From the sequence record KJ190157: a DNA stretch of 64,000 nucleotides; one strand, 5' to 3'. Positions 19,115 through 22,224 of the stretch are shown piece after piece (the first letter of the stretch is position 1; every line of letters starts with the position of its first letter). The position numbers were made by a program, and so were the translations under genes. This stretch comes from Escherichia phage vB_EcoS_FFH_1. The notes under the pieces were generated by a model. That model was not told where the DNA came from, ran no database searches, and saw only the letters and a list, made by a program, of their open reading frames with translations.

Positions 19115-19423
19115 ATGAGCGAACAGGTAAATCAAAACTATGAAGGACACGTTGATGACCAGTCCATCATACTTTGGGAGAAGGAGGGGGAACAAGTAAG
19201 ATTAACAGTATCGGAATTTCGTGGGAATCTATACATGGGTATTCGTTACTGGCTTCTTGATATTAATGATGAATGGTTTCCAACGAAATCTGGCTTCTCT
19301 TTTCCTTACACCCTAGAAACAACATCACAGCTTTTCTACGCGTTTACACAGATTCTTAGTGAATCTGAGGTTTTACATGAGGTACAGAAACGAGCTGAAG
19401 AACTCAAAGCCAAGAATGCCTAG
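19115..19423 (+). CDS. hypothetical protein (102 aa)
   Basis: ORF whose stop lies within an intrinsic terminator hairpin. Confidence 0.5.
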   Translation: MSEQVNQNYEGHVDDQSIILWEKEGEQVRLTVSEFRGNLYMGIRYWLLDINDEWFPTKSGFSFPYTLETTSQLFYAFTQILSESEVLHEVQKRAEELKAKNA

Positions 19424-19440
19424 TTCTTGGCTTTTTCTTT
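19408..19440 (+). terminator. intrinsic terminator overlapping stop codon of 19115..19423
   Basis: AGCCAAGAA / TTCTTGGCT 9-bp stem followed by TTTTCTTT. Confidence 0.6.
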
Positions 19441-19450
19441 ATAAATGTAT

Positions 19451-19479
19451 TTGCTTTCAACTCAGTTTTGTTATATAAT
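19451..19479 (+). promoter_or_regulatory. early promoter TTGCTT-N17-TATAAT + ATTTATATAAATTGATGAGAG box (ligase A)
   Basis: -35 19451-19456, -10 19474-19479. Confidence 0.6.
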
Positions 19480-19510
19480 ATTTATATAAATTGATGAGAG
19501 ATACAAATAA

Positions 19511-20482
19511 ATGACTAATGTAAAAAACTTTATTAAACGTTGCCAAGAAGCGTACTACCAGGGAATGTCTTTAATCTCTGACGAAGAATATGATCGTCTG
19601 ATTAAAAGATTTCCGTTAGAAGAAGAGATCGGTCCTAAGGGCGATATTCCACATCTGTATCGTATGTATTCTTTACAGAAAGTTTATTATAATCGTGGAG
19701 ATAAACCTCCGTTTAACCCATTAGGTCAGGTAGAAACTGATAAGTTAGATGGTTGTGCGATTTCTCTGCTATATATTAATGGCGAATTTGTTCAAGCACT
19801 AACTCGTGGTAATGGTATTCTAGGGAATGATGTCACAAGCAACGTAAGATTGCTGAACATTCCTAAAAAGATTTCCCAAAAAGTACCTACTCAAATCACT
19901 GGTGAAGTTCTAATTACAAAAGAAGTAGAAAATAAACGTAACTTTGCCTCTGGTGCTATTAACCTCAAAGATAGTGATGATTTCGTACAACGTATCGGGG
20001 AAGGTGGTTTAATCTTTGTTGCATATGGTATCCAGTGTTCTGCTGAATCTGTAGGTATTACAGAAGCATATTTAAAAGATATGCTTTGGCTAGAGAATGA
20101 GAACTTCTTAACAGTTGTTAATGTACGTTCCTTCTTTAAATGGATTCCGACGGACGGTAAAGTTGTTCGTATTAATGACAACAACAAATTCTTCCGCGAA
20201 GGCTGGACTAATAAATTCCCTCGCGGGGCGTTCGCTATTAAAGAGGATGAAGAAGGCGAGATTACAACTCTTACTAAAGTTGAATGGCAGGTAGGGGCTT
20301 CTGGTAAAGTAACTCCAGTTGGTTATTTCGAACCGGTAATTATTGATGATGCTACAATTGTTAAAGCGACTCTTAATAACGTTGATTATATTAACTCTCT
20401 CTATCTAGAGATCGGTTGCCAGATTCGAGTGATTCGTGCTGGTGGTGTAATCCCGTGTATAGTAGAGCGAGTATACGATTAA
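19511..20482 (+). CDS. lig: NAD-dependent DNA ligase, adenylation-domain subunit (N-terminal half of a split LigA)
   Basis: KxDG adenylation motif TDKLDGCA; 323 aa ending before Zn-finger/HhH/BRCT region; PN25-like promoter upstream. Confidence 0.8.
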   Translation: MTNVKNFIKRCQEAYYQGMSLISDEEYDRLIKRFPLEEEIGPKGDIPHLYRMYSLQKVYYNRGDKPPFNPLGQVETDKLDGCAISLLYINGEFVQALTRGNGILGNDVTSNVRLLNIPKKISQKVPTQITGEVLITKEVENKRNFASGAINLKDSDDFVQRIGEGGLIFVAYGIQCSAESVGITEAYLKDMLWLENENFLTVVNVRSFFKWIPTDGKVVRINDNNKFFREGWTNKFPRGAFAIKEDEEGEITTLTKVEWQVGASGKVTPVGYFEPVIIDDATIVKATLNNVDYINSLYLEIGCQIRVIRAGGVIPCIVERVYD

Positions 20483-20532
20483 TACATAACCCTTTGCTAC
20501 CCATCTACCATATCGGAATTATAAAGTGGTTA

Positions 20533-20561
20533 TTGACATTTTCGCCGCTTAGGTATATACT
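20533..20561 (+). promoter_or_regulatory. sigma70-type promoter TTGACA-N17-TATATA in inter-ligase spacer
   Basis: -35 20533-20538, -10 20556-20561. Confidence 0.45.
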
Positions 20562-20625
20562 ATTATCATTCAGTTGAGGGATAGAAAGTTATGGCGAGGG
20601 TAAGCAAAGTTAGTTAAAATTGTAG

Positions 20626-20654
20626 TTGCTAAATGCTTAAATACTTGCTATAAT
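20626..20654 (+). promoter_or_regulatory. early promoter TTGCTA-N17-TATAAT + ATTTATATAAATTGATAAGGAAG box (ligase B)
   Basis: -35 20626-20631, -10 20649-20654. Confidence 0.6.
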
Positions 20655-20684
20655 ATTTATATAAATTGATAAGGAAGAAATTTG

Positions 20685-21464
20685 ATGAAAATCGAAATTC
20701 CAACACAATGTCCCTCTTGTGGTTCTAAGCTAGATCTTGTCAACGGACAATTATTCTGTCGTAATAAGTCCAACTGTCCAGCGCAATCAAGCAAGTTAAT
20801 TGAGAACTTCTGTTCAAAAATGAAGTTAAAGGGCTTTGGCCCAAAAACTATTGAGAAGCTGGAGCTGACGAAGATTTCAGAACTATTTTACCTAACCGAA
20901 GAAGATTTGGTTAGAGTCGTGGGTAGCAAGGTTGCCGCTAAGTTAATTAGCGAATTAAATACTAAAGTTCGCGGAGACATTGACTTTGGTTCAGTTCTCG
21001 GTTCTTTAGGAATCCCTCTAATTGGAGAGGTTGCAGCAAAGAAATTATCCCAAAATTGCACTAGCTTCCACGATGTGAAGGCTGACGGCAAGGCTGGAGA
21101 AAATTACAAAGCCTGGCTAAATTCCCCACAAGGCAAGGATGTTATTGAACTACCGTGGAAATTTTCAACTGGTATTAAGGGCACTAAAGCTGACGTCATC
21201 ATTACAGATGAATTAGTTGCCCAGCCAAATGGAATCGCGGTATGTATTACCGGATCTTTGCAAGATTTTGCAAATCGAACGGATGCAACAAACTATTTAG
21301 AAGGTCTAGGGTATACGGTTAAGAAATCCGTTACTAAAGACGTCAAATACCTAATCTGTGAGGATGAATCAAAACGTTCTTCCTCATCTTATAAGAAAGC
21401 CGAAACGAATGGGATAGAAATCCTGTCGATTAAAGAACTATTGGAGAAAAATAATAATGTCTAA
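20685..21464 (+). CDS. lig: NAD-dependent DNA ligase, C-terminal subunit (Zn finger, HhH, BRCT-like)
   Basis: Four-Cys finger CPSCGSKL...CRNKSNCP, helix-hairpin-helix-like GFGPKTIEKL, BRCT-like C-terminus; own promoters in the 200-bp spacer. Confidence 0.75.
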   Translation: MKIEIPTQCPSCGSKLDLVNGQLFCRNKSNCPAQSSKLIENFCSKMKLKGFGPKTIEKLELTKISELFYLTEEDLVRVVGSKVAAKLISELNTKVRGDIDFGSVLGSLGIPLIGEVAAKKLSQNCTSFHDVKADGKAGENYKAWLNSPQGKDVIELPWKFSTGIKGTKADVIITDELVAQPNGIAVCITGSLQDFANRTDATNYLEGLGYTVKKSVTKDVKYLICEDESKRSSSSYKKAETNGIEILSIKELLEKNNNV

Positions 21465-22224
21465 ACTGAACTGGAACGTAGAAGGTGTAACCGAGTCTCT
21501 GAAAGCAAAAGCCACTGCTCTGGGTGTTGCTGTAATCTCTCAAGAACAAGTAGCTGCTATCGCTGCTGAACTGGCTGCTGAAACTGGTAAAGACGTTACA
21601 GCTCGCTCTGTTGGCTCTAAACTGCGTAAAGAAGGTTTTGAAGTACAGAAAGCTAACGAAGTACAGAAATCCCCGTGGACTCCTGAGCAGGAAGCTGAAC
21701 TGGTTGATTTCCTGAACGCTCATGCTGGTCAGTATACCTATGCTGAAATCGCTGCTGCTGTAGCTGGTGGTCAGTTCGGTGCTAAACAGGTACAGGGTAA
21801 GATCCTGAGTCTGGAAATGACCGCTTCTGTTAAACCAACTGAAAAAGCTGCTGCTGTTCGTTCCTTCACTCCTGATGAAGAAACTGATTTTGTTAATCAG
21901 GTTGTTGCTGGTGCTACTATTGAAGCTATCGCTGCTCACTTCGGTCGTAATATCAAGCAGATCCGTGGTAAAGCTCTGAGCCTGCTTCGTGAAGGTCGTA
22001 TCGCTGCTATGCCGGTACAGGAAACCTCAAGTGCTAAAACTCGTGAAGATCTGTTAGAAGGTCTGGATCTGGCTAACATGACTGTTGCTGAGATCGCTGA
22101 GAAAACTGGTAAATCTGAGCGCGGTGTTAAATCTATGCTGTCTCGTCGTGGTCTGGTTGCTAAGGACTATGATGGTGCTGCTAAGCGTGCTAAACTGGAT
22201 GCAAAAGCTGCGGCTGCTGAATAA
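21457..22224 (+). CDS. abundant repeat-containing HTH-like protein, putative DNA-binding protein
   Basis: Four ~60-aa internal repeats each ending in an HTH-like segment (e.g. TVAEIAEKTGKSERGVKSMLSRRGL); extreme codon bias; followed by strong terminator. Confidence 0.55.
   Translation: MSKLNWNVEGVTESLKAKATALGVAVISQEQVAAIAAELAAETGKDVTARSVGSKLRKEGFEVQKANEVQKSPWTPEQEAELVDFLNAHAGQYTYAEIAAAVAGGQFGAKQVQGKILSLEMTASVKPTEKAAAVRSFTPDEETDFVNQVVAGATIEAIAAHFGRNIKQIRGKALSLLREGRIAAMPVQETSSAKTREDLLEGLDLANMTVAEIAEKTGKSERGVKSMLSRRGLVAKDYDGAAKRAKLDAKAAAAE

Follow-up and report, generated by a model that had tools for sequence, protein, structure and literature searches.

[quoted passage not shown] 2005, Virology 332:45, as cited in PMC1684257), when it was described with the genome, and annotations of hundreds of phage genomes now list its subunits, A and B, as a matter of routine. 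In T5, ligA and ligB lie in that order, encode products of 323 and 259 amino acids, and are separated by a 202-nt spacer carrying the promoters P-K28b and P-K28a; a PC4-like gene stands upstream of the pair, and D5 and a DnaB-like helicase gene follow it. The ligase of Escherichia coli (LigA, PDB 2OWO) is, in contrast, one chain of 671 amino acids with the domain order Ia-NTase-OB-Zn-HhH-BRCT and four zinc-binding cysteines. The two-chain architecture recurs in PR1, a different T5-like phage, for which heterodimer-DNA structures have already been solved (PDB 9HU3 and 9I5I, released 2026; chain A, 339 amino acids; chain B, 248 amino acids). Both entries are titled [quoted passage not shown] and these titles are the sole source of the heterodimer evidence used here. 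A search of the literature for activity of the T5 and PR1 ligases found genome-level mentions and no biochemistry paper. Other phage genes are also found in pieces: in Aeh1, nrdA-a and nrdA-b are split by mobE, and the T4 topoisomerase is divided between gp39 and gp60. Like these, the locus described below encodes a replication enzyme as two adjacent ORFs whose products would reassemble noncovalently.

A T5-type ligA/ligB locus

We analyzed a 64,000-nt stretch of sequence record KJ190157 from Escherichia phage vB_EcoS_FFH_1, hereafter the window. It very probably holds a T5-like (Tequintavirus) ligA/ligB locus, whose two products make up one NAD+-dependent DNA ligase and work together as a noncovalent heterodimer. 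The genes and flanking features are as follows.

19406 to 19434, + strand: terminator-like hairpin with a 12-pair stem, a 5-nt loop, and a T-rich tail, TTCTTTATAA
[quoted passage not shown]
20483 to 20684, + strand: intergenic spacer, 202 nt; stops in all three frames
20685 to 21464, + strand: ligB, NAD-dependent DNA ligase subunit B, 259 aa; zinc finger, HhH, and BRCT
21457 to 22224, + strand: D5-type gene downstream of ligB; labelled transcription factor in relatives

Both ligase ORFs are present on the + strand where an earlier note, made from the sequence alone, had placed them; each begins with ATG, and ligB is in a different frame from ligA. The spacer that the note had put at about 200 bp measures 202 nt. 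Tequintavirus phages match the window at 98.7% DNA identity, with 446 phage records matching and Salmonella phage SPLA5b (98.7%) as the best DNA match. Gene order, product lengths, spacer, promoters, and flanking genes are all as in T5, from which the window differs by few substitutions (subunit A, 99% amino acid identity to T5 ligA, CDS AAU05253; subunit B, 97% to T5 ligB, AAU05254), as another Tequintavirus isolate. The split ligase in the window is the T5-type LigA/LigB already known, and is not new.

Upstream of ligA, the PC4-like gene ends at 19423, and the hairpin by its end marks the close of the preceding transcription unit. A ribosome-binding site for ligB, AAGGA, lies at 20671 to 20675, and an in-frame TTG at 20682 stands just 5' of the ligB ATG. 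At the other end of ligB, the ATG of the D5-type gene overlaps the coding sequence by 8 nt; this gene therefore shares a transcription unit with ligB, and translational coupling between the two is probable.

The PR1 chains are homologous to those of the window over their full length (A, E = 3e-104; B, E = 3e-81). Subunit A is about 53 to 54% identical to its PR1 counterpart in a structure-based alignment, its AF2 model matches 9i5i_A with a TM score of 0.78, and small indels set the two ligases apart within the NTase domain and ahead of BRCT. Domain order and the four zinc-binding cysteines are also common to the window's pair and E. coli LigA, at about 25 to 27% identity in structure-based alignments. 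Compared with E. coli LigA, the ligase of the window has a shorter Ia/NTase part (323 versus about 393 amino acids), a shorter HhH region, and about six fewer linker residues. Where LigA family members are single polypeptides, the window has two ORFs 202 nt apart, and this two-ORF layout is what defines the T5-type ligase subfamily.

Two halves of one ligase

Pfam assigns both DNA_ligase_aden (PF01653, E = 2e-23) and DNA_ligase_OB (PF03120, E = 9e-21) to ORF A above cut-off. The KLDGCA motif occupies residues 78 to 83, and K78 aligns with K115 of E. coli LigA, the adenylation lysine. Residues 214 to 320 align with the OB part of the E. coli enzyme (284 to 390). The earlier note had the adenylation domain ending at 20482; the ORF does end there, but it also contains the whole OB domain. 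Among 15 subunit A homologues, down to 47% identity, K78, D80, G81, R99, E132, D215, and K244 are invariant, as are Y15, Y27, and D28 of domain Ia. In E. coli LigA, the NMN-binding residues Y22, D32, Y35, and D36 of domain Ia confer NAD+ specificity. Residues 20 to 34 of ORF A align with residues 28 to 42 of the E. coli protein (SDEEYDRL versus PDAEYDRL), with an insignificant domain score, and because this HMM match is weak, the assignment of NAD+ specificity to subunit A rests on a few conserved residues.

ORF B supplies the remaining domains. Pfam places BRCT (PF00533) above cut-off (E = 1e-7), with HhH-type matches near or below gathering thresholds, and residues 3 to 122 align with the Zn/HhH part of E. 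coli LigA (402 to 529). The four-cysteine zinc finger (C9, C12, C25, C31) keeps its cysteine pattern in all 84 subunit B homologues. Alignment of both ORFs to full-length LigA, which the earlier note had suggested as a means of defining the split point, puts the break at about E. coli residues 393/400, in the OB/zinc-finger linker.

We propose a division of labor in which NAD+ would adenylate subunit A (Ia, NTase, OB), giving a Lys78-AMP intermediate, and DNA binding would be the part of subunit B (zinc finger, HhH, BRCT). The two subunits would then together encircle the nicked duplex, with AMP transfer and sealing to follow as in single-chain LigA; the linker in which the break between them lies is flexible. 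Judged by homology, the phage's own proteins would be expected to form the heterodimer, use NAD+, and seal nicks.

Promoters in the spacer

The spacer (31% GC) is 100% identical to that of T5 st0, and the two promoter-like elements that the earlier note had seen in it are P-K28b and P-K28a of the T5 annotation; we take these two to be classic strong promoters of the older T5 promoter literature. Three promoters bear on the locus.

19451 to 19495, + strand: putative ligA promoter; -35 TTGCTT at 19451 to 19456, 17-nt spacer, -10 TATAAT at 19474 to 19479
20513 to 20587, + strand: P-K28b, mapped from the T5 st0 GenBank feature via identical alignment
20606 to 20680, + strand: P-K28a, mapped from the T5 st0 GenBank feature

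In a sigma-70-like scan, P-K28b has 11 of 12 consensus matches (-35 TTGACA, 20533 to 20538; 17-nt spacing; -10 TATACT, 20556 to 20561) and P-K28a has 10 of 12 (-35 TTGCTA, 20626 to 20631; 17-nt spacing; TATAAT, 20649 to 20654), the latter with a TG-extended -10 (TGcTATAAT). The scan by itself proves nothing, because it returned five promoter-like matches in the region against 6.2 ± 3.1 in shuffles; both of its sites in the spacer coincide with promoters annotated in T5. Klebsiella phage Roth49 and Serratia phage Slocum keep the hexamers of P-K28b and P-K28a in spacers that have otherwise diverged. By analogy with T5, both promoters are probably active in the phage of the window, where they would add transcription of ligB, D5, and the DnaB-like helicase gene to read-through from the ligA promoter.

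The putative ligA promoter is missing from the scan list because its -35 matches the consensus at just three of six positions; the T5 record has a "putative promoter" in the corresponding position. Its 22-nt core, TATAATATTTATATAAATTGAT (19474 to 19495), is identical to the core of P-K28a, and the window contains exactly two copies of this 22-mer, where 0.01 would be expected. More speculatively, the common -10/+1 core may coordinate expression of the two subunits.

The earlier note's view that the spacer has no intron-like structure or endonuclease ORF was borne out: Rfam gave no family match between 19300 and 21700 at E ≤ 1, and the spacer RNA fold shows no excess structure over shuffles (z = -0.78). 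An intron in the spacer was accordingly set aside as a candidate. The sole ATG ORF of at least seven codons in or around the spacer (20461 to 20700) has eight codons and lies between both promoters. We considered its product, MARVSKVS, as a leader peptide and rejected it; the ORF is taken to be a chance occurrence because it shows no conservation in the phages of Klebsiella or Serratia. The spacer is a remnant of nothing recognizable.

Conservation of the split

Subunits A and B are separate, and in the order A then B, in all 84 related loci that have both halves. The best 120 subunit A homologues all measure 240 to 337 amino acids, and none reaches full LigA length; the end points of A and B are alike in the 15 aligned homologues and in 84 of 84 loci. 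A protein search found the same split architecture in 1,016 records, and in a phage tblastn search identity falls from 44% (split ligases) to 23 to 28% (single-chain ligases of jumbo phages and others). Both halves evolve under purifying selection (dN/dS, 0.03 to 0.14). The whole clade shares the A/B split as a fixed and ancient feature. The earlier note had left two explanations standing, the scar of an excised mobile element and a genuine two-subunit ligase. The latter is strongly supported by the constancy of the split, by the selection on both halves, and by the homologous heterodimer deposited on nicked DNA.

The gap between ligA and ligB is a variable cargo site over the wider clade. Across the 84 loci it ranges from 60 to 4,586 nt, with variable relative frames, and in Vibrio phages and marine contigs it holds whole unrelated genes (DprA-like, NADAR, thioredoxin, and carbamoyltransferase). 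The extra 180 to 270 bp in EH7, HK6, and others was considered as a spacer insert and found to be located upstream of ligA instead; the small ORFs there match PHROGs of unknown function.

Origin of the split

An alternative account of how the two genes arose starts from a single-chain ancestor: a homing endonuclease, free-standing or intron-borne, would have inserted into its OB/zinc-finger linker and so cut the gene in two. The T5 lineage would later have lost the endonuclease, and promoters would have taken over the spacer. Such an origin is compatible with a working heterodimer today, and the divided genes of Aeh1 (nrdA/mobE) and T4 (gp39/gp60) provide a precedent. We consider it possible but unlikely. 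The gap does behave as a variable insertion site, at 60 nt to 4.6 kb in the 84 loci, and some of what it contains resembles endonucleases. A 123-aa ORF recurs in the gap of 11 marine IMG/VR loci and matches phrog_681 ("endonuclease") at E = 2e-12; a twelfth marine locus (L037) has the 123-aa ORF downstream of ligA, with ligB not found in the locus. Another locus (L072) has a 220-aa ORF directly after ligA that matches phrog_681 (E = 1e-38) and phrog_559 ("HNH endonuclease," E = 1e-23), as well as the Pfam treble-clef zinc finger DUF4379. The endonuclease-like ORFs also give sub-threshold matches to T5orf172 and to a URI-fold nuclease, while Pfam finds no HNH, GIY-YIG, or LAGLIDADG domain above threshold in the gap ORFs of relatives. 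The PHROG matches are a lead rather than proof.

Several observations weigh against this origin. The earlier note had suggested that the spacers of relatives be checked for remnants of an intron or homing endonuclease. We found no endonuclease ORF or remnant in the T5-like, Klebsiella, or Serratia spacers, nor any endonuclease or intron remnant in the spacer of the window; the endonuclease-like ORFs sit in the gap of a minority of marine relatives. Unlike the Aeh1 nrdA/mobE arrangement, the window and every examined Tequintavirus spacer lack an endonuclease gene, and their gap holds promoters. In 65 of the 84 loci the gap is shorter than 250 nt and contains no ORF. The endonuclease-like ORFs are confined to some of the distant marine contigs and may have arrived there secondarily, and homologues of the 220-aa ORF occur elsewhere, upstream of ligA (T5-like L011 and L014; L026) and downstream of ligB (L056). 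There is also no fused close relative by which to polarize the event, the nearest single-chain phage ligases being 23 to 28% identical. Somewhat speculatively, and with similar doubt, the ligA-ligB gap could be seen as an ancient, clade-wide insertion hotspot that arose from an endonuclease split and that Tequintavirus domesticated as a tandem strong-promoter cassette.

Alternatives to a heterodimeric ligase

A second alternative concerns function: subunit A alone might be a minimal ligase, with subunit B an independent DNA-binding or recruitment protein expressed more strongly from P-K28a/b. A LigA-type enzyme cut short after the OB domain retains self-adenylation with NAD+ (PMC1684257). The possession by ligB of two dedicated strong promoters, its cotranscription and overlap with D5, and the distances of up to kilobases between ligA and ligB in relatives would all suit such a division. 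We nevertheless hold this reading to be very improbable. From domain deletions of E. coli LigA by the Shuman laboratory, the zinc finger and HhH are reportedly needed for nick binding and sealing, and subunit A alone should therefore stall after self-adenylation. Co-occurrence and the A-then-B order are moreover conserved in 84 of 89 loci, and both chains are together on nicked DNA in the PR1 entries.

Still less credible is a single ligase polypeptide produced via an intron, an intein, or translational bypass. Group I introns, inteins, and the gene 60 bypass do occur in phage replication genes, and ORF A and ORF B are adjacent and co-oriented. Against an intron stand the empty Rfam search, the unremarkable fold, and a spacer of just 202 nt with conserved promoter hexamers; an intein is opposed by the lack of extra junction residues, since A ends at about E. 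coli residue 393 and B starts at about 400. The PR1 homologues, too, are deposited as separate chains of 339 and 248 amino acids. Because the gaps of some relatives contain whole unrelated genes, an intron, an intein, and a sequencing error are excluded. The chance that the split reflects faulty sequencing or assembly, or a pseudogenizing mutation that arose recently in this isolate, is close to negligible, given the 446 near-identical phage records, the 1,016 found by protein search, the uniformity of the 84 loci, the presence of more than one stop in each frame of the spacer, and purifying selection on both halves.

Meaning of the locus

The heterodimeric T5-type ligase is thus the reading that we retain, and the locus is real but ordinary. 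The idea of an insertion hotspot, if true, would add a minor evolutionary and regulatory point about an enzyme already known and would leave the identity of the locus unchanged. For T5 specialists, the points of interest are the variable cargo site between the two genes and the identical core in the ligA promoter and P-K28a.

The split ligase locus

The locus is the split ligase of phage T5, real and already known. Its nearest DNA match is Salmonella phage SPLA5b (98.7% identity), and the 446 matching phage records belong, where taxonomy was retrieved, to the Demerecviridae, mostly Tequintavirus or Epseptimavirus. The T5 st0 record (AY692264) names the genes ligA (AAU05253) and ligB (AAU05254), which are listed by accession in PMC3632103, and PMC1684257 places the T5 split ligase in the literature of 2005. 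The window contains two co-oriented ORFs, as the earlier note had described, with the following features:

19406-19434, terminator-like hairpin closing the upstream unit
19474-19479, -10 of the putative ligA promoter (TTGCTT-17-TATAAT), 3' of the hairpin
19511-20482, + strand, ORF A (ligA), 323 aa
20483-20684, spacer, 202 nt, 31% GC
20513-20587, promoter P-K28b, mapped from T5, holding the scan match TTGACA-17-TATACT (20533-20561)
20606-20680, promoter P-K28a, mapped from T5, holding the scan match TTGCTA-17-TATAAT (20626-20654)
20685-21464, + strand, ORF B (ligB), 259 aa counted from the ATG, with an in-frame TTG at 20682

ORF A matches the Pfam NAD-dependent ligase adenylation (E 2e-23) and OB (E 9e-21) domains; the earlier statement that the adenylation domain ends at 20482 is slightly imprecise, since the ORF includes the complete OB fold as well. 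The reading of the part from 20685 as Zn-finger/HhH/BRCT agrees with BRCT and HhH-type Pfam matches in ORF B, whose product begins MKIEIPTQCPSCGS and whose cysteines C9, C12, C25 and C31 are retained in 84/84 homologues examined. Aligning both ORFs to full-length E. coli LigA (PDB 2OWO and 4GLX), a check proposed previously, pairs E. coli residues 284-390 with subunit A residues 214-320 and 402-529 with subunit B residues 3-122, so that subunit A ends near E. coli residue 393 and subunit B starts near 400. We take this interval, from the domain boundaries of 2OWO, to be the linker between OB fold and zinc finger. Relative to E. coli LigA, the phage pair is short of only ~6 linker residues at the break, and the alignment revealed no intein-like extra sequence at the junction. 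Across 15 aligned subunit A homologues (identity down to 47%), K78 (the adenylation lysine, E. coli K115), D80, G81, R99, E132, D215 and K244 are invariant, as are Y15, Y27 and D28 of domain Ia, and the C-terminal stop position is shared. Leaving aside domain Ia, whose match is weak, the LigA-family features are all present but for a single polypeptide, and all the sequence features that define the T5-type LigA/LigB subfamily occur at this locus.

The window lacks detectable tRNA genes and Rfam families at gathering score over its 64 kb, and therefore covers the early replication region of a T5-like genome rather than the tRNA cluster; this region holds nrd genes, helicases and the ligase.

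Generality and origin of the split

None of the best 120 subunit A homologues in the database (240-337 aa; phages of Escherichia, Yersinia, Erwinia, Serratia, Pectobacterium and Vibrio) reaches full LigA length. Subunit B was found by tblastn in 1016 phage records, with identity of 44% in Vibrio phages, which are split, and a next level of 23-28%, mostly jumbo phages annotated with a single DNA ligase gene. Of 89 loci collected (9 from GenBank and 80 from IMG/VR), 84 yielded both halves; in every one of these the subunit A stop codon precedes subunit B on the same strand, across a gap of 60-4586 nt (median ~100) and in variable relative frame. Values of dN/dS of 0.03-0.14 for both halves against T5, an S124-like phage, Klebsiella phage Roth49 and Serratia phage Slocum (unsaturated dS only) indicate purifying selection. 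With a homologous complex in PDB 9HU3/9I5I, these results strongly support the genuine two-subunit ligase that the earlier note had offered as one of two readings.

The gap may contain other genes. In Vibrio phage River4 three genes, one DprA-like, separate the halves, and marine contigs may carry NADAR, thioredoxin, 2OG-Fe(II) oxygenase, carbamoyltransferase or radical-SAM genes. Gap cargo in relatives includes a NADAR-domain protein (L023, 5953-6606; E 2e-31), notable beside an NAD-consuming enzyme, and cassettes of 3.5-4.6 kb (L065, 5936-9423; L068, 5939-10526) with carbamoyltransferase, 2OG-Fe(II) oxygenase, radical-SAM/SPASM and QueC-like genes.

The other reading, that the split is the scar of an excised mobile element, concerns the history of the locus and appears unlikely. 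In 11 marine IMG/VR loci (L048, L056, L061, L065, L068, L072, L073, L075, L083, L085, L087), an ORF of about 123 aa recurs in the gap and matches phrog_681 "endonuclease" (E 2e-12), and a 220-aa ORF directly after ligA in L072 matches phrog_681 (E 1e-38) and phrog_559 "HNH endonuclease" (E 1e-23). In some lineages, therefore, endonuclease-type genes are drawn to the gap, much like the "genes in pieces" precedents of phage Aeh1 nrdA and T4 topoisomerase. However, such ORFs might just as well have arrived late, the 220-aa ORF has homologues beyond the gap on both flanks of the ligase genes, and nothing in the window spacer resembles a remnant. In marine T5-like contigs the 123-aa ORF (MASIGKYN.TYF.NHPEE...) immediately precedes ligB; in a twelfth locus, L037, it lies downstream of ligA and ligB was not found. 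One family member has a below-threshold T5orf172 match (E 0.007), and the 220-aa ORF also matches the DUF4379 treble-clef finger.

Sequencing error, pseudogene, intron, intein and translational bypass are excluded by homologue lengths, the 84/84 split loci, gap genes and purifying selection together; sequencing error, once named as what could overturn the split, falls to its conservation across relatives. Every spacer frame contains several stops and the two ORFs do not share a frame, so neither a single indel nor read-through could fuse them. The previously reported lack of an intron is consistent with the spacer matching no Rfam family at E <= 1 and folding no better than shuffles (z = -0.78).

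Promoters and expression

The ~200-bp spacer with two promoter-like elements seen earlier matches its T5 counterpart at 100% identity; there, AY692264 annotates "P-K 28b" and "P-K 28a". Promoter-like matches in the region are no more numerous than in shuffles, and by itself the scan carries little weight. Roth49 and Slocum, however, keep both -35/-10 pairs, and the stretch downstream of the P-K28a -10, within diverged spacers, which argues for selection on the promoters. Both are among the very strong T5 promoters reported by the Bujard laboratory in the 1980s. An 8-codon ORF between them (MARVSKVS, 20591-20617), with a Shine-Dalgarno-like GAGGGA, probably arose by chance, its ATG not being kept in the Klebsiella and Serratia phages.

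The T5 record also annotates a "putative promoter" at the place equivalent to the putative ligA promoter. Within its 64 kb the window has exactly two copies of the 22-mer TATAATATTTATATAAATTGAT, which covers the -10 and the start region (0.01 expected): one at 19474-19495 in this promoter and one at 20649-20670 in P-K28a, upstream of ligB. Every T5-like locus examined (L001-L005, L010-L021) retains both copies (<=2 mismatches), even where a small ORF stands between promoter and ligA; Roth49 and Slocum keep only the ligB copy. This shared core may serve to co-ordinate the expression of both subunits, or may stem from a promoter duplication. The -35 regions are also similar (TGTAnTTGCT). The extra ORFs (62-90 aa; L003, 1611-1883; L004, 1610-1798) occur between promoter core and ligA in some Tequintavirus and Epseptimavirus genomes, belong to PHROGs of unknown function and have no counterpart at window 19496-19510. 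A scan revealed no terminator-like site in the spacer, so that ligB transcripts could arise by read-through in addition to starting at P-K28b and P-K28a. The end of ligB overlaps the beginning of the D5-type gene (21457-22224) by 8 nt; that gene has a GC content of 0.46-0.47, clearly above its neighbours (0.36-0.40), and codon choice resembling a highly expressed gene.

Structure and putative mechanism

PDB 9HU3, whose title describes the heterodimeric DNA ligase of PR1 phage on a nicked 21-mer DNA, was released in early 2026 with 9I5I (this enzyme on a nick of random sequence) and contains homologues of both chains in one complex. Its chains A (339 aa) and B (248 aa) correspond to subunits A and B at E 3e-104 and E 3e-81, respectively. 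The AlphaFold prediction for subunit A of the window (pLDDT 85.7) superposes on 9i5i_A with a TM of 0.78. Homology predicts that subunit A self-adenylates at K78 with NAD+; PMC1684257 describes this reaction for a LigA-type enzyme cut off behind its OB domain and thus lacking the C-terminal half. Subunit B would likewise bring the Zn-finger and HhH half for DNA binding and so close the clamp on the nick. From these sequence relationships, we infer heterodimer formation, cofactor choice and sealing by the proteins of this phage.
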